The notes: generated from the letters alone by a model not told the origin. A stretch of DNA of 64,000 nucleotides from Chloroflexota bacterium (GCA_009838735.1 VXQZ01000041.1:36348-100347), one strand, 5' to 3'; numbered from the stretch's first letter, positions 36,823 through 43,579 are shown. A program made the numbers and translations.

Positions 36823-37230
36823 GTGCCAACGGCCGCTCCCGCTCGCGACCCGCTCAGCGCGACCTTTGCGGCGCTGGCCGATCCGACGCGCCGCGCAATT
36901 CTGACGACCCTCGCCGACGGCGAGGCGTCGGTGACCGCGCTGGCCGAACCGTTCGAGATGACCCTGCCGGCCGTCTCCAAACATCTCAAGGTGTTGGAGC
37001 GGGCGGGTCTCATCGAGCGGAGCAGCCGGGCCCAGTGGCGACCCTGCCGGCTCTCACCCGAGCCGCTCAAGGACGTCTCCGACTGGGTCGAGCGCTACCG
37101 CGAGTTCTGGGAACCACGACTCGATCGTCTCGACGATTACGTCAGCGATCTGCAGAGCAACGTCGACGCCGATCGGGAGCGTGACACAACGGACCTAACC
37201 GAAACGGAAGAACAGGAGCCCGCGAAATGA
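36823..37230 (+). CDS. ArsR/SmtB family transcriptional regulator
   Basis: FAALADPTRRAIL, PAVSKHLKVLERAGL. Confidence 0.93.
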   Translation: MPTAAPARDPLSATFAALADPTRRAILTTLADGEASVTALAEPFEMTLPAVSKHLKVLERAGLIERSSRAQWRPCRLSPEPLKDVSDWVERYREFWEPRLDRLDDYVSDLQSNVDADRERDTTDLTETEEQEPAK

Positions 37231-37682
37231 CCGCGACCGAAAGCACCATCACGACCGACGAACGGGGCGTTCAGCTCGAGCGCATCTTCGATGCACCGCC
37301 GGCGCTGGTCTGGCAAGCCTGGACCGAAGCCGAACACTTCGCTCGCTGGTACGGCCCGGATGGCTTCACGGTTCCGACCTGCGAGATCGACTTCCGGGTC
37401 GGCGGTGAATACTCGCTGGTCATGCGCTCGCCGGACGGTTGGGAGATGCGGAACTTCGGCCAGTTCAAGGAGATTGAGCCGAACGAGCGATTCGTGGCCA
37501 CAATGTCGGCCGACATGCACGACGAGACCACGCTGACGGTCTCGCTGGAGGATCTCGGCGACGGGCGCACAAAACTGACCATGCGGCAGGACGGCTGGCC
37601 CGATCCGCAGATGGCCGAGGGCGCCGGTGGCGGCTGGGCTCAGGCGCTGGAGAAGCTGGCCGTAGAGTTGGCACTCGAATAA
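37227..37682 (+). CDS. SRPBCC/AHSA1 domain protein
   Basis: ERIFDAPPALVWQAWT, DFRVGG, GWAQALEKL; classic ArsR-SRPBCC pair. Confidence 0.9.
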   Translation: MTATESTITTDERGVQLERIFDAPPALVWQAWTEAEHFARWYGPDGFTVPTCEIDFRVGGEYSLVMRSPDGWEMRNFGQFKEIEPNERFVATMSADMHDETTLTVSLEDLGDGRTKLTMRQDGWPDPQMAEGAGGGWAQALEKLAVELALE

Positions 37683-37752
37683 CAACGCCGCGCGCTCTCC
37701 AATCGGAGAGCGTCACCTCCGCCGTTACCATCTCGATTGACGGAGGTAAGGC

Positions 37753-40700
37753 ATGTCCATTGAGAAGCTGCTGGTCGCCAATCGCGGCGAGATCGCTATT
37801 CGGATTATCCGCGCCGCGCGCGAACTTGGCGTCGCCTCGGTTGCGATCCATTCGCAGGATGACGCGAACTCGCTGCATGTGCGGCTGGCCGACGAGGCAG
37901 TGTCCTTGGACGGCGCCGGGGCTCGCGCGTACCTCGATGTCGAATCGGTCGTGAGAGCTGCGATTGACGCCGGTTGCGATGCGCTGCACCCCGGCTATGG
38001 CTTTCTGGCCGAGAGCGCGGAGCTGTCTCGTCGTTGCGACGAAATGGGCATCAGATTCGTCGGTCCGACCCCAGAGTCACTCGAGCTGTTCGGCGACAAG
38101 GCCTGCGCTCGCGCGTTGGCGGTCGAGCTGGACGTTCCCGTGTTGCCAGGTACCGAAACCGCTGTGGATCTCGAAGGGGCGACTGAGTTCTTCCACTCGC
38201 TGGGCATCGGCGGCGCGATGATGCTCAAGGCGATAGCGGGCGGCGGCGGCCGGGGCATGAGAGTGGTGACGGCCGAGGATCAGATCGCCGAGGCGTACGA
38301 GCGTTGCCAGTCGGAGGCTGTGACTGCGTTTGGCAACGGTGAGCTGCTGGTCGAGCGCTTGATGGCTACCGCGCGTCACGTTGAAGTGCAGATTGTAGGT
38401 GACGGCTCCGGCGCGGTTGCCCACCTCGGCGAACGGGAGTGCAGTCTGCAGCGGCGGCATCAGAAAGTCGTCGAGTGGGCGCCGAGCCCGTCGATCTCGG
38501 ATGAGACCCGCGAGCGTCTGACCTCCGCAGCCGTTCGCCTGGCAGGGTCGGATAACTACCGCAGCCTGGGCACGTTCGAGTTCCTGGTCAATGCCGACGA
38601 CGAGTCGGACCTGGCCTTCATCGAGGCCAACCCGCGTCTCCAGGTCGAGCACACCGTGACCGAGGAAGTGACCGGTGTCGACCTTGTCCGAGCGCAGTTG
38701 CGCATTGCCGGCGGGGAATCGCTGGCGGCGGTCGGACTGGCTCAAGCGGACGTTCCGGCGGCACGTGGCTACGCGATTCAGGCACGGGTCAACATGGAGC
38801 GGATGGAGCCGAGCGGCGACGTGCGCCCCTCGGGCGGCATGCTGACAGCATTCGAGCCGCCCTCGGGGCCCGGTGTGCGCGTTGATACCTATGGCTACCC
38901 CGGCTACACGACCAATCCCAACTTCGATTCACTATTGGCCAAGGTGATCGCATACTCCGCCTCGCCTGACTTCGGCGATGCGGTCGGACGGACGCGGCGT
39001 GCACTGTCCGAGTTTCGGATCGAGGGGGTTGAGGCCAACCTCTCATTCCTGGAGCAGTCGTTGGCGCACCACGACTTTGGGTCAGGCGGGATCTACACCC
39101 GCTGGGTTGACGACCACGTGGCCGAACTTGCTGAAGCGCCGGAGATCGATCTGCCTGGACAGAATGGTGCTTCCGATTCGCAAGCAGGACTCGCCGGAGC
39201 GCAGCTTGACACGCTCGATCCGCTCGCCGGACTGAACTACTTCCGCGAGGGTTCAGGGACCAGGGCGCAGCAGGGCGTCGCGACGATGACTCCCGGGACA
39301 CAGCCGGCGCCAAACATCGTCGGACCACCTGGCACGGAAGCGGTTCCGTCTCCACTCCAGGGCACGATCATTCAGATCCTGGTCGAAGAAGGAGACGCCG
39401 TCCGCGAGGGCCAGCCGATGTTCGTGATGGACTCGATGAAGATGGAGCACATCATCAACTCGGACATCGGCGGCTACCTGCGGCAGCTGACAGTCGCGAT
39501 CGGCGACGTGGTGTACGAGGGCCATCCGCTCGCCTTCATCGAGCAGGCAGACGTCGGCGACGCGATTCGTGAGGAAGAGGCGGAGATCGACCTTGACTAC
39601 ATCCGGCCTGACCTGCAGAAGCTGTTCGACAATCTCGACGCAGGGAAGGATGAGAACCGACAAGCCTGGGTCGAACGACGGCACGCCAAGGGCAAGCTGA
39701 CCCAGCGAGAGAGCCTGGTCGAGCTGGTCGACGAGGGCAGCTGGGTCGAGATGGGCGAGCTGGTCTTGCCAGCTCGCCATCGGATCATGTCGTTCGAGGA
39801 GATGCGCGTGCGCGCGCCGGCCGACGGCATGATTACCGGGATCGGCACGGTCAACGGAAACCTGTTCGACGAGAACCGCGCGACCACGCTGGTCGCGATG
39901 TACGACGAGACCGTCTGGGCCGGCACCCAGGGCATGATGGGCCACCAGAAGACCGACCGCGTGATCAAGTTCGCCGACGAGCAGGCCACGCCGTTGATCG
40001 TCTGGGCCGAGGGCGCCGGCGGCCGCTCGGGCGATACCGACTTCAATGACATCTCGTCGGCCGGCCAGTGGGTGCCGACCTACGACATGATGGCCCGGAT
40101 CAGCGGCACGGTGCCGATGATCGGGATTACCGCGGGCCGCACATTCGCCGGCAACGCATCGATCCTCGGGATCACCGACTGCATCATCGCCACCCGCGAC
40201 GCCAACATCGGCATGGGCGGACCGGCCACGATCGAAGGGGGTGGTCTGGGACTGTTCACCCCCGAAGAGATCGGGCCGATGTCCGACCTCGGTCCGGCCG
40301 GCAGCGTTGACATCCTGGTTGACGACGAACACGAAGCAATCGCCGCGGCGAAGCAGTACCTGTCCTACTTCCAGGGTTCGATCCCCAGTTGGGATTGCGT
40401 CGATCAGCGACACCTGCGGCACGCGATTCCCGAGAATCGCAAGCGACCCTTTAGTGTGCGCAACGTGATCGAGCAGATGGCCGACATCGACTCGGTGCTG
40501 GAGCTACGAGGCGAGTTCGGCGTCGGCATCATCACTTCGCTGATTCGCATCGAAGGTCATCCGATCGGTGTGATTGCCAACAACAACGAACATCTCGGCG
40601 GCGCTGTCGACAGTGACGGCGCGGACAAGCTCTGCCGCTTTGCGCAGCTCTGCGACTGCTTCAACATTCCCATCCTCGTGCTGGTCGACACGACCGGGAT

Positions 40701-41163
40701 GATGGTCGGCCCCGACATTGAGCGCACCGGATTGGCGCGCAAGTGCAACAACGTCTTCGTCACGTTGGCGAATGCGCAGTCGCCGCGATTCACGATCATC
40801 CTGCGTAAGTCGTACGGTCTCGCTGCACAAGCGATGATGACGGGCAGCTCGCGAGCCCCGCTGTTCGCGCTGGCCTGGCCAACGGCCGAGCTGGGCGGAA
40901 TGAACCTTGAGGCTGCGGTCCGGCTGGGCAACCGTGCCGAGCTGGAGGCGATCGACGACATCGAGGAACGCGCCGCTCGCTACGAGGCGCTGGTCGCCAA
41001 TGCCTACTGGAGAGGCAACGCGATCAACTCGGCCTCGGTGCACGAGAACGACGGCGTGATCGACCCGGCCGACACGCGGCGCTGGATCGTCCGCGGTTTG
41101 ATGGCCTGCGAGAATCCGGAGCCGATCCGCCGCGGTCGGCGGCCAAACATCGACACGTGGTAA
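37753..41163 (+). CDS. Single-chain biotin-dependent acyl-CoA carboxylase (BC-BCCP-CT fusion)
   Basis: LLVANRGEIA, HPGYGFLAE, RECSLQRRHQK, RLQVEH, SMKM biotin site, C-terminal CT domain. Confidence 0.93.
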   Translation: MSIEKLLVANRGEIAIRIIRAARELGVASVAIHSQDDANSLHVRLADEAVSLDGAGARAYLDVESVVRAAIDAGCDALHPGYGFLAESAELSRRCDEMGIRFVGPTPESLELFGDKACARALAVELDVPVLPGTETAVDLEGATEFFHSLGIGGAMMLKAIAGGGGRGMRVVTAEDQIAEAYERCQSEAVTAFGNGELLVERLMATARHVEVQIVGDGSGAVAHLGERECSLQRRHQKVVEWAPSPSISDETRERLTSAAVRLAGSDNYRSLGTFEFLVNADDESDLAFIEANPRLQVEHTVTEEVTGVDLVRAQLRIAGGESLAAVGLAQADVPAARGYAIQARVNMERMEPSGDVRPSGGMLTAFEPPSGPGVRVDTYGYPGYTTNPNFDSLLAKVIAYSASPDFGDAVGRTRRALSEFRIEGVEANLSFLEQSLAHHDFGSGGIYTRWVDDHVAELAEAPEIDLPGQNGASDSQAGLAGAQLDTLDPLAGLNYFREGSGTRAQQGVATMTPGTQPAPNIVGPPGTEAVPSPLQGTIIQILVEEGDAVREGQPMFVMDSMKMEHIINSDIGGYLRQLTVAIGDVVYEGHPLAFIEQADVGDAIREEEAEIDLDYIRPDLQKLFDNLDAGKDENRQAWVERRHAKGKLTQRESLVELVDEGSWVEMGELVLPARHRIMSFEEMRVRAPADGMITGIGTVNGNLFDENRATTLVAMYDETVWAGTQGMMGHQKTDRVIKFADEQATPLIVWAEGAGGRSGDTDFNDISSAGQWVPTYDMMARISGTVPMIGITAGRTFAGNASILGITDCIIATRDANIGMGGPATIEGGGLGLFTPEEIGPMSDLGPAGSVDILVDDEHEAIAAAKQYLSYFQGSIPSWDCVDQRHLRHAIPENRKRPFSVRNVIEQMADIDSVLELRGEFGVGIITSLIRIEGHPIGVIANNNEHLGGAVDSDGADKLCRFAQLCDCFNIPILVLVDTTGMMVGPDIERTGLARKCNNVFVTLANAQSPRFTIILRKSYGLAAQAMMTGSSRAPLFALAWPTAELGGMNLEAAVRLGNRAELEAIDDIEERAARYEALVANAYWRGNAINSASVHENDGVIDPADTRRWIVRGLMACENPEPIRRGRRPNIDTW

Positions 41164-41225
41164 CCGCTGTTCGTCTCTAGACTCGGTGTCGAGACTGACG
41201 CGGAATCCGAGTGAGGAAGTGAACG

Positions 41226-42395
41226 ATGACAGATCAGCCGTCGGGCGACGCCCTGATTCGACAACAGATCGGCAACCTGCCGGTCCCTGAGTTCGCCGAG
41301 ACCGCCTGGACCGTGCCGCCGCCGTTGGCGGAAGCGAGGGTGGCGGTTGTGACCTCGGCAGCGCTGTACCCGTGCGATGGCGAGCCGTTCACAGTGACCG
41401 ACACCAGCTACCGCGCGCTTGATCATGATCAGCGCCAGTTGGTGATGGGACATTGGAGTCCAAACTTCGACCGATCCGCTTTCGGCATCGACTACAACGT
41501 CGTCTACCCGCTGGCCCGCCTGGACGAACTGGCCGAGCAGGGCGTCATCGGCTCGGTCGCCTCGAAGCACTACGCGTTTGCCGGAAATCAGCCCGACGAT
41601 GTCGCCACGATCCGATACGACTCCGGCCCGGCGTGTGCGGCGGAACTGAAGGCCGACGGCGTTGATGTCGTGTTCCTGACGCCGGTTTGACCGCTCTGCT
41701 CGCGTACCGTGTGTACGCTGGCCCACGTGTTTGAAGCGGCCGGCCTGGCGACCGTGACGATTACCTCGATTCGCGCCGTGGGCGAACGCATGCGCCCGCC
41801 TCGAGTCCTTCACTGTGAGTTCCCGCTCGGTCGGCCCCTGGGCAAGACCAACGATCCTGAGTTCCAGCACGATGTGTTGCGTCGCGCCTTCTCCTTGCTG
41901 GAGCGCGAGTCCGGTCCCGTACTGGAGGAGCACCCGGAAGAAATCGTGGGCGCCGAAGAGCCGTTGAGTTGCACGGTGCCGCCGCGATTCGATCCCGATC
42001 TGGCGCCCGCCGTCGATGAGGCGCACGGACTGCGCAAGGCTTATGAACGCGCCCTAGCTCGACGAGGGGTGAGTGAAGTCGGCAACGCCATCGACGCCGA
42101 CGGTGTGCCCGATGCACTGGACGTATTGCAGAACATCGTCAACGGAACGCCCTGGAAAGAGGCCGGCATCCCCGGCGGGCACACGACCGCGCTGGCGAAT
42201 GACATTCGCGCCTACTACGAGGAGGCCGCGCTCGAACTGACCGACGCGGCCAATCCGGGTGGCCATCAGACCGAAGACTGGTTCTTCGAACGCACCGAAG
42301 CGGGCAAGCTCATTCTGGCCGTGAGGAAAGCGCTCGCCGCGCAGGGCGCGCCGCAGCCGGTCTGGTTCTACATGGCGCCAATGCACCGCAGCTAA
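41226..42395 (+). CDS. Putative selenoprotein, PrdB/GrdB (reductase selenoprotein B)-like, Sec at UGA 41688-41690
   Basis: ORFs 41226-41690 and 41709-42395 are in one frame separated only by TGA, giving VFLTPV-U-PLCSRTV (UxxC); ARVAVVTSA and DYNVVYPLARLDELAEQGVIG motifs. Confidence 0.85.
41698..41722 (+). promoter_or_regulatory. Bacterial SECIS-like hairpin
   Basis: GCT(C)GCGTAC-cgtgt-GTACGC(T)GGC; loop starts 17 nt after UGA with G at loop position 2. Confidence 0.7.
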
Positions 42396-42415
42396 GCGTC
42401 GGCCACACCGTTCTG

Positions 42416-43579
42416 TTACCAGAACGGCGCTCGAGCCTCATCGCCGAGCAGCACGCGGGCAGCGGCCGCGTAGTTGGACGCACCCAGGACCACATGTTGG
42501 TTCATCGCGTGCATGTCGCGAAGTCGCCGGTCCAGCGTGGAGCGTTCGCTGTACAGCGCCGTGGATCCGGCGACGGCGTAGAGCCGCTCGACGACTCTCT
42601 GGCACTCCTGGTGAACGTGTGTGATCGCGAGTCGCAGGTTGACCCGGTTCGCATCGGACATCTGGCCGGTTTCGCAGACCTCTTGCCAGGCCGCGTCGGA
42701 GGCGGAGAGCGCATATGCCCGGCAGGCGGCGATTTGCGCTGCCGTTTCACCGAGCGTGGCCTGGGTCAGAGGATCGTCGCGCAGCGAACCGCGCAAGGCG
42801 ACGCGCTCTCGGGCGAGGTCCATCACCTCGTCGTGCGCAGCCTGAACCAGACCGAGCGCCACGCCCAGGTGCTTGGGCAGCAACCAGGCAGGATGACGCA
42901 GCGGATCGCCCGGCACCGAGCGGGTTGAGGGTCTGACCGGCACGCTGCGCTCGTCGGGAATGAAGAGGTCGTTGACCTCTACATCGTGACTGCCGGTGCC
43001 GCACATGCCGCCGGTCTTCCAGGTGTCGAGGATTGTCACCTCGCTGCGGTGCGCAACCAGCCTGATGAATGGCGGCCCCTCCGACGGCGCATCGTCTCCG
43101 CTCAGTCGGCAGTTCATCTGCACCCAATCGGCGTGTGTGATGCCGCTCATGTAGGGCCAGCGACCGCTCGCTACGAATCCGCCGTCGACGCGTCGAGCCG
43201 TCCCCGGAGGAAAGCCCGCGCCGCAGGTGGCGGCGTCGATGTCGGCGTACATCTCGCGGGCGACATCCGGTTCGAGTTCGCGGGTGAGCAAGCCGCCGTC
43301 GCAGCCGATCATCACGCACCAGGCGGTCGAGGCGTCGGCTTTGGCCAGTTCGGCAATGAACAGGATCTGAGTCACGGGGTCAGCGTCGTGTCCGCCCAGC
43401 CAGCGAGGCTGCAGGAGCCTGAAGGCGCCAATGCCCTTGAGCAGGTCAACGATGTGCCCGGGAAGCCGCCGTGCAGCCTCAATCTCATCGGCCGCTGCTC
43501 CGATCTGTGGAGCGATCGAACGAGCAGCGTCCAGCAGAGCGTTGCGCTCTTCGGGGGTGGCGCCGAAGAAGGTACTCAT
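42416..43579 (-). CDS. Acyl-CoA dehydrogenase-fold flavin-dependent hydroxylase (HsaA/NcnH-like)
   Basis: ASTAWC, SGRWPYMSG, DTWKTGGMCGTGSHD, RRLRDMHAMNQH. Confidence 0.87.
   Translation of the reverse strand: MSTFFGATPEERNALLDAARSIAPQIGAAADEIEAARRLPGHIVDLLKGIGAFRLLQPRWLGGHDADPVTQILFIAELAKADASTAWCVMIGCDGGLLTRELEPDVAREMYADIDAATCGAGFPPGTARRVDGGFVASGRWPYMSGITHADWVQMNCRLSGDDAPSEGPPFIRLVAHRSEVTILDTWKTGGMCGTGSHDVEVNDLFIPDERSVPVRPSTRSVPGDPLRHPAWLLPKHLGVALGLVQAAHDEVMDLARERVALRGSLRDDPLTQATLGETAAQIAACRAYALSASDAAWQEVCETGQMSDANRVNLRLAITHVHQECQRVVERLYAVAGSTALYSERSTLDRRLRDMHAMNQHVVLGASNYAAAARVLLGDEARAPFW

Follow-up and report, generated by a model that had tools for sequence, protein, structure and literature searches.

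A predicted two-domain PrdB/GrdB-like selenoprotein encoded by a stand-alone gene with a SECIS-type hairpin in a Chloroflexota bacterium

The window analysed here is a stretch of 64 000 nt of DNA from a Chloroflexota bacterium (GCA_009838735.1, VXQZ01000041.1:36348-100347), and all positions are counted from its first nucleotide. It contains, on the plus strand, a gene for a predicted selenoprotein of 389 amino acids (aa) related to the PrdB and GrdB subunits of the proline and glycine reductases. The features of the gene are itemized in Table 1. A single in-frame UGA is predicted to encode selenocysteine (Sec, U), and is followed by a hairpin of the type that forms a selenocysteine insertion sequence (SECIS). 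The protein comprises an alpha/beta core containing the Sec and an additional helical domain at the C-terminus.

Table 1. Features of the selenoprotein gene and its product
Feature	Position	Strand	Basis
Complete coding sequence of the predicted selenoprotein	41226..42395	+	389 aa and TAA stop; homology over residues 1-389 in 19 genus orthologues, with one TGA each
PrdB/GrdB-like alpha/beta core, residues 24-226	41295..41903	+	TIGR04483, PF07355 and AlphaFold2 model
Predicted UGA-Sec codon, residue 155	41688..41690	+	TGA kept in relatives; Cys in homologues; Sec machinery in the genome
Cys158 codon, putative partner of Sec in UxxC	41697..41699	+	Invariant in 42 of 42 sequences, including those with Ser, Gly or Ala at 155
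SECIS-type hairpin within the coding sequence	41698..41722	+	Pairing in 80 sequences, compensatory pair, synonymous minimum
All-helical C-terminal domain, residues 243-389 (147 residues)	41952..42392	+	Family-specific; pLDDT 90.6 when modelled alone
Cys249 codon, interdomain linker motif C-x-x-P-P-R	41970..41972	+	Invariant in alignments of 42 and 32 sequences

The gene and its UGA codon

The gene runs as one frame whose sole interruption is the TGA. Translation of this codon as U gives a protein with the motif ...VFLTPV-U-PLCSRTVC.... A Shine-Dalgarno-like GAGGAAG (41213-41219) lies ahead of the ATG at 41226. Calling of open reading frames (ORFs) with translation table 11 divides the gene into two ORFs in the same frame, of 154 aa (41226-41690) and 228 aa (41709-42395). 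The second starts with GTG, and the six codons that lie between the TGA and this GTG are conserved as coding sequence. The same division is found in the databases, where 56 of the 120 best matches are fragments of 222-232 aa from the region after the TGA; those that are named are labelled 'hypothetical protein'.

The genome containing the window (3.15 Mb in 56 contigs, 96.6% complete) encodes the machinery for Sec insertion. In profile searches selA (523.6 bits), selB (330.3 bits, or 350.4 counting its C-terminal piece) and selD (352.7 bits, and carrying one in-frame TGA) score above their curated cut-offs. The tRNA-Sec (selC) is also above its cut-off with 68.2 bits, and is called by ARAGORN as tRNA-SeC with the anticodon tca. 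The genome has five copies of the protein family, each with exactly one TGA. A match to the family is present in 47 of 61 related genomes, and none of the 36 other genus genomes is without one. Where a match extends over residue 155 it always has a single TGA, while the nine stop-free matches cover parts of the protein away from this residue. The sequence V-TGA-P-L-C occurs in 19 of 19 genus orthologues (82-100% identical, with the window's own copy counted).

The codon is also kept over greater distances. A Sec-form query was run against prokaryotic genomes, one for each species, and the best 80 of 226 confirmed matches were taken. These are 50-85% identical to the window protein, and are labelled as Dehalococcoidia, many Acidimicrobiia, Gammaproteobacteria, Binatia and others. 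TGA is found at the site in all 80 loci, in 79 by means of a motif pattern and in the remaining one (L119) separately. Sixteen full-length homologues in the protein databases were examined (380-440 aa, 44-54% identical), and 13 of them have Cys at the aligned position. Homology continues across the stop, with the PrdB model extending over residues 24-226 including U155, and the orthologues aligning over residues 1-389.

These comparisons point consistently to decoding of the TGA as Sec, which would be residue 155 in the motif U155-P-L-C158. If the TGA were instead a true stop, the locus would contain two separate genes or a pseudogene. This would fit the two ORFs called with table 11, the presence of the 228-aa piece as a protein in the databases and the unexceptional energy of the local RNA fold. 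It is hardly credible, however, given that about 100 genes from different phyla retain the codon and the frame, that homologues have Cys at the site, that the six codons preceding the GTG are conserved as coding and that the genome encodes the Sec machinery.

The hairpin downstream of the UGA codon

The stem of the hairpin is formed by GCGTAC (41702-41707) paired with GTACGC (41713-41718), and the apical loop between them is CGTGT (CGUGU in the RNA; 41708-41712). Two outer G-C pairs (41698-41699 with 41721-41722) flank the stem, giving 6+2 bp in total. The distance from the UGA to the first base of the loop is 17 nt, where the bSECISearch paper is said to give a spacing rule of 16-37 nt, and the base at loop position 2 is G. 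A bacterial SECIS has been defined as a stem-loop that follows the UGA directly and has a G in its small apical loop (PMC1088965), and this is the arrangement found here.

A 71-nt stretch folded alone has z = -0.51 against shuffled sequences, i.e. no extra stability. The energy of the single sequence therefore makes no case for the hairpin, which rests on its conservation. An Rfam scan of 41000-42500 at E <= 10 returned four matches at the level of chance and no SECIS family, and a scan for promoters and terminators over 37400-42700 gave nothing useful.

In the 80 sequences of the cross-species scan, which come from several phyla, 99.2% of 640 pair cells hold standard base pairs. This percentage is inflated, the structure having been derived from the same 80 sequences and the peptide being conserved; the compensatory pair described next is not so affected. 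Shifting the 3′ partners by 1-3 columns as a control left 2.5-67.8% paired. The pair between columns 18 and 28 is U-A in 46 sequences, C-G in 32 and U-G in two, and is never unpaired. Column 18 corresponds to the third, synonymous position of an Arg codon, and column 28 to the first position of a codon for Thr or Val. Thus the silent choice in the one follows the amino-acid change in the other so that the pair is kept. In the 19 genus orthologues the lowest synonymous variation lies in an 8-codon stretch that begins two codons past the Sec codon, with a minor-codon fraction of 0.013 compared with a gene mean of 0.28 (376 aligned codons; one row of the alignment, L040, is partly out of register). 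The paralogues in the same genome have hairpins at the equivalent place, with stems that differ. Taken together these data support a hairpin that is under selection as RNA and that would act as a SECIS.

The selD gene of this genome (G000:C46:120633-121574, locus L011) also encodes a selenoprotein, with the motif CGG-U-GSKF. The hairpin that follows its own UGA has a 13-bp interrupted stem, and its apical loop CGUGC is close to the CGUGU found here.

A preliminary description, made from the sequence of the window alone, had joined the two ORFs across the TGA at 41688-41690 into a 389-aa selenoprotein with LTPV-U-PLC and a SECIS-type hairpin (GCGTAC-cgtgt-GTACGC, with its loop 17 nt past the UGA and G second in the loop). 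That description stands in each of these respects, with the Sec machinery (selA, selB, selC and selD, all above their curated cut-offs), the alignment of homologues (Cys in 13 of 16, or a conserved TGA, with homology on both sides) and the conservation of the hairpin (99.2% paired, a compensatory pair and the synonymous minimum) all in agreement on one selenoprotein gene. It had also called the gene hidden. This is right in so far as annotation pipelines cut it in two, as seen in the database fragments, but as a statement of novelty it goes too far, in that PF07355/UxxC selenoproteins named PrdB have already been counted in ocean surveys.

Protein architecture, paralogues and genomic neighbourhood

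The best match to the protein in NCBIfam is PrdB (TIGR04483), with 112.5 bits and E = 2e-32, residues 24-226 aligning with positions 16-219 of the 238 in the model. The equivalog cut-off of 300 bits is not reached. The Pfam family GRDB (PF07355) matches residues 18-152 on positions 206-345 of 347 with 28.4 bits, passing the gathering score of 22, while the selenoprotein B subfamily TIGR01918 gives 41.5 bits, under its cut-off of 65.45. The protein is thus PrdB/GrdB-like with a UxxC motif, as had been proposed, and no curated model fits the two-domain family. In all four family members scanned the PF07355 model runs out (at positions 344-347 of 347) precisely where the Sec lies, which suggests that it was built on UGA-truncated sequences and is blind to everything downstream.

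An AlphaFold2 model calculated from an alignment of 42 sequences has a predicted local distance difference test score (pLDDT) of 94.3. An alpha/beta core (about residues 32-240) is followed by a linker and then by the all-helical domain. U155 is placed between the strand 148-152 and the helix 158-171, at the start of the helix. Foldseek found no match to the whole model at E <= 0.001. VIA-align returned only generic Rossmann-like, LacI-like and short-chain dehydrogenase/reductase (SDR)-like folds with Z scores of 7-8.6, within the stated noise band. A sequence search of the PDB found no structure of the PrdB/GrdB family, with a best E of 0.13, and a search of the ESM Atlas with a natural Cys-form homologue returned clusters of the GRDB family only.

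The extra C-terminal domain noted in the preliminary description is well defined in the model, and has no Pfam match at E <= 1. Its model has no solved relative (best structural Z 4.3, best Foldseek E 0.72), which does not prove a new fold. A profile of the domain searched against 1.84 billion representatives found 357 proteins at E <= 0.001. Among the 150 of these that were listed, the domain lies behind a GRDB core, or the protein is a post-TGA or otherwise partial fragment. Five matches of odd length were checked with Pfam and gave no informative fusion. The sole long match, P0147 (1019 aa), looks like a spurious gene call of low complexity, and P0179 looks like a chimeric call. The helical domain is, on these comparisons, specific to the family. 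A stop-free frame of 251 aa in a related genome (G028:C1:1676683-1677255) matches residues 201-377 only, i.e. the end of the core and the C-terminal domain, and may be a stand-alone form or a remnant.

At least 90% of the 42 aligned sequences have U or C at position 155. Cys158 and Cys249 are invariant (Table 1), as are S78, D82, D89, H115, R193, Q214, E265, W352 and others. Cys249, in the linker between the domains, might act as a resolving cysteine or bind a metal, and a more speculative possibility is a site of self-processing.

The other four copies in the genome are 35-38% identical to the window protein and have one TGA each (G000:C10:136892-139382, C17:19488-20588 and C19:120183-121280; L126-L128). 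All are found close to the ends of contigs, at distances of no more than about 1 kb. Three paralogues are clustered in related genomes (L129 and closed genomes), where RecQ and ClpS/TPR genes border the cluster and a PIN-domain gene interrupts it. Contigs C10 and C17 are therefore probably neighbours, with the assembly broken at the repeats. The paralogue clusters in four related genomes contain no partner gene. Genomes of other Dehalococcoidia genera (G039, G041, G053, G056, G057, G059 and G060) have frames of PrdB length (245-323 aa) and of GrdB length (437-499 aa) with one TGA each, and so all three architectures of the superfamily exist as selenoproteins in Dehalococcoidia.

A tree was calculated by a quick method only, in which neither the root nor the direction of change is set. 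The four other copies in the genome fall together in a clade of their own with long branches. The nearest partner of the window protein is a second Dehalococcoidia sequence, and the two lie among Sec forms from Acidimicrobiia. Cys forms fall in at least two well-supported separate clades among the Sec forms (four changes by parsimony). A 52%-identical Sec form from a contig labelled as a Klebsiella pneumoniae metagenome-assembled genome (L121) groups with Binatia and unclassified Proteobacteria; the label is probably an error of binning or naming.

Immediately upstream of the selenoprotein gene, on the same strand, is a gene for a 1136-aa fused biotin carboxylase/biotin carboxyl carrier protein/carboxyltransferase (37753-41163), from which it is separated by 62 nt. 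The other neighbours encode a convergent flavoprotein with the acyl-CoA-dehydrogenase fold, a crotonase, a SnoaL-like protein, an SDR and a 605-aa glyoxalase/VOC-domain protein. The genome has three full-length versions of the carboxylase (100%, 59% and 54% identity), the others being at C28:46003-49398 and C31:87453-90848, and types of 53-60% identity occur in most genomes of the genus.

Within the genus this arrangement is well kept, the carboxylase adjoining the orthologue at 16 of 18 loci and the dehydrogenase-fold gene at 18 of 18. The two orthologues occur together in 17 of the 37 genomes of the genus, the Sec gene without the carboxylase in two and the carboxylase without the Sec gene in five. 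These observations, with the common strand and the short spacing, favour a role for the selenoprotein in a pathway with the acyl-CoA carboxylase, the dehydrogenase-fold flavoprotein and the crotonase. Genomes of one genus are not independent observations, however, and other loci differ. At L046, an 85%-identical orthologue from the same genus, the carboxylase is lacking and the gene just upstream encodes an APH-like kinase. When L046:2914-4090 is compared with window positions 36823-41163, the genes for an ArsR-type helix-turn-helix protein, an AHSA1-like protein and the carboxylase are missing from L046, and look like a block that has been inserted or deleted. No homologue of the carboxylase was found in flanks of up to 8 kb at any of the 80 loci, while dehydrogenase-fold and crotonase queries each matched at four of the 80, with identities of 91-93% at L046 and 25-34% at the three others.

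Clustering of 564 neighbouring ORFs from 79 loci (L119, missed by the motif pattern, is left out) revealed no conserved partner gene. The recurring families are generic and abundant. The largest, SDR, is present at 13 of the 79 loci, followed by acyl-CoA synthetases and luciferase-like monooxygenases at nine each. A role in the neighbours' pathway is therefore unlikely. The acyl-CoA setting appears to be conserved within the genus only, and the gene to stand alone. The preliminary description had named the neighbours roughly correctly (a biotin carboxylase, a flavin hydroxylase, a VOC protein and a crotonase), but what it drew from an acyl-CoA cluster does not survive the comparison, as the linkage does not hold beyond the genus. 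The neighbours should not serve to infer the function of the selenoprotein.

Proposed function and comparison with known systems

The explanation that we consider probable overall is that the gene encodes a stand-alone two-domain selenoprotein, with Sec inserted by means of the conserved hairpin, that functions as a self-contained selenol/thiol reductase. On this view the genes for the carboxylase, the dehydrogenase-fold protein and the crotonase would owe their position to chance within the lineage and would not be the context of a pathway. Comparison of sequences argues directly for the decoding of Sec and for membership of the GRDB superfamily. The UGA would be read by the organism's own SelA, SelB, SelD and tRNA-Sec, assisted by the hairpin whose stem starts 11 nt downstream. 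In the proposed cycle the selenolate of U155 would attack an electrophilic substrate, and C158 would resolve the adduct to leave a U155-C158 selenenylsulfide. A cellular dithiol, e.g. thioredoxin, would then re-reduce this bond. Proline and glycine reductases need a pyruvoyl subunit (PrdA/GrdE), whereas the reductase proposed here would act without one.

The preliminary description had leaned away from the Stickland enzymes, with no PrdA, GrdA or GrdE nearby, and this is upheld. None of the three is found among the neighbours in the window. Searches of the genome for PrdA (TIGR04480), GrdE/PrdA (PF09338) and GrdA (PF04723) gave no match, although these are weak negatives as the same models also gave none in 14 control genomes. 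The protein could in principle belong to a canonical Stickland D-proline reductase as its PrdB subunit, or be a GrdB-type subunit of a glycine or betaine reductase, in keeping with its UxxC motif, with PrdB as its best NCBIfam match and with the label 'D-proline reductase (dithiol) PrdB' that JGI gives to homologues. This is very improbable in view of the TIGR04483 and TIGR01918 scores, which are under their cut-offs, the missing PrdA, GrdE and GrdA, the additional 147-residue domain and the lack of a recurring partner gene at 79 loci. As judged from these comparisons the protein is not a D-proline reductase.

As to what a self-contained reductase might act upon, we lean, at a little under an even chance, towards a small molecule bound between the core and the C-terminal domain. 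The reasons for this leaning are that the extra domain is large and conserved, that many polar residues are invariant and that the paralogues have diverged. The main alternative, a selenoprotein of general redox defence, is possible, though doubtful. It would be a thioredoxin- or peroxidase-like reductase of disulfides, peroxides or sulfoxides, using the same U155-C158 cycle with no dedicated substrate. The UxxC at a strand-to-helix junction, as in thiol oxidoreductases, agrees with this, as does the absence of a conserved operon partner. Ocean surveys also find the family beside many redox selenoproteins, and PrdB was classed there as 'thiol-dependent redox' (PMC1088965, Table 3). The fold is however not thioredoxin-like, its best matches being Rossmann-like or periplasmic-binding-like (Z 7-8.6). 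Moreover the large conserved C-terminal domain and the invariant polar residues suggest a specific binding site, and there are five diverged paralogues per genome.

A further version of the self-contained reductase has the C-terminal domain replacing PrdA/GrdE, possibly with a carbonyl cofactor generated by self-cleavage at Cys249. Kabisch et al. reportedly found in 1999 that the pyruvoyl group of PrdA is derived from a cysteine, and self-cleavage at Cys249 would thus be one possible source of such a cofactor. We regard this as unlikely. Were it true, oxygen-exposed marine and sponge-associated heterotrophs could reductively cleave an abundant compound of the amine or osmolyte type, a reaction that to our knowledge has so far been described only for strict anaerobes.

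Several points weigh against the explanation that we prefer, of a stand-alone selenoprotein reductase. The U155-C158 cycle is drawn from the UxxC motif and the chemistry of PrdB and GrdB, and the literature searched contains no experimental report of selenium incorporation or activity for the two-domain family. Ser, Gly and Ala occupy position 155 in three homologues (P0024, P0028 and P0045) that keep C158 and C249. Position 155 is thus not indispensable for every member, and these three may be inactive or work differently. The use of a Sec-form query, with the best 80 of 226 matches, may have biased the sample towards Sec forms. The pairing of the hairpin is confounded in part by the conserved peptide C-[ST]-R-T-V. 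The negatives for PrdA, GrdE and GrdA come from a genome that is 96.6% complete and from models silent in the controls. Lastly, the Sec gene and the carboxylase occur together in 17 genomes of the genus, and a local functional link is still conceivable.

Selenoproteins of this kind have been catalogued for some time. In the Sargasso Sea survey of 2005 'Proline reductase (PrdB)', with UxxC, ranked third in abundance among the selenoprotein families, at 42 Sec forms and one Cys form (PMC1088965). The Global Ocean Sampling (GOS) survey of 2008 counted 235 Sec and 110 Cys forms of pfam07355 in 38 samples (PMC2398784). A comparative paper of 2006 gave 'proline reductase' selenoproteins in Anaeromyxobacter and Geobacter (PMC1794560). 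In the available text of reviews from 2022 and 2026 PrdB appears only as a clostridial enzyme, and BSepDB (2026) places two Dehalococcoidia in the top ten selenoprotein-rich bacteria (PMC13326102). The literature search found no paper on the two-domain family, its function or the missing PrdA. The window gene is therefore a new member of a selenoprotein family that is catalogued but functionally uncharacterised, and that bears a misleading name.

PrdB-type UxxC selenoproteins have ranked among the commonest in ocean metagenomes since 2005, yet are filed under the proline reductase of anaerobic fermenters. The present locus presents a form that, on the evidence above, cannot be D-proline reductase, having an added domain, no pyruvoyl partner that could be found and Sec in every close relative examined in several phyla. 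In one Dehalococcoidia genus the copies number as many as five or six in a genome. What this large family of marine, selenium-dependent proteins does thereby becomes a concrete and testable question. The analysis also flags a systematic mis-annotation, with each gene held as two 'hypothetical' fragments and a Pfam model that extends no further than the Sec site.

The closest known system is PrdB (TIGR04483), with which the window protein has in common a homologous alpha/beta core with Sec in a UxxC motif inside it; the motif is stated for PrdB in PMC1088965, PMC2398784 and PMC9312934. It differs from PrdB in scoring about a third of the equivalog cut-off, in having no PrdA that could be found and in the added helical domain. 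The distribution is different too, the window family occurring in lineages labelled Dehalococcoidia, Acidimicrobiia and Gammaproteobacteria, and PrdB in clostridia that carry out Stickland fermentation. GrdB, GrdF and GrdH (PF07355, TIGR01918) are matched in their C-terminal half (about 205-400 of roughly 435 residues), well enough for the window protein to pass the Pfam gathering score. Their N-terminal half is lacking, however, the score is under the TIGR01918 cut-off and GrdA and GrdE were not found. A review of 2026 in Applied and Environmental Microbiology gives the GrdB motif as UxxCxxC, compared with UxxCxxxxC in the window protein, where the last Cys is not conserved.

Database entries of about 395 aa named 'glycine/sarcosine/betaine reductase selenoprotein B family protein' have the same two domains, are 44-54% identical and have all the invariant residues in common. 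They differ in having Cys (in a few cases Ser, Gly or Ala) in place of Sec, and are therefore annotated at full length. The ocean surveys treated their 'PrdB' sequences as proline reductase, and in the available text do not mention a missing PrdA or an extra domain. The surveyed family resembles that of the window protein in belonging to PF07355, in its UxxC motif, in its abundance and in the excess of Sec over Cys forms. Marine sources, Tara among them, have yielded homologues of the window protein, and we infer that the 'PrdB' sequences of the ocean surveys are those of the two-domain family.

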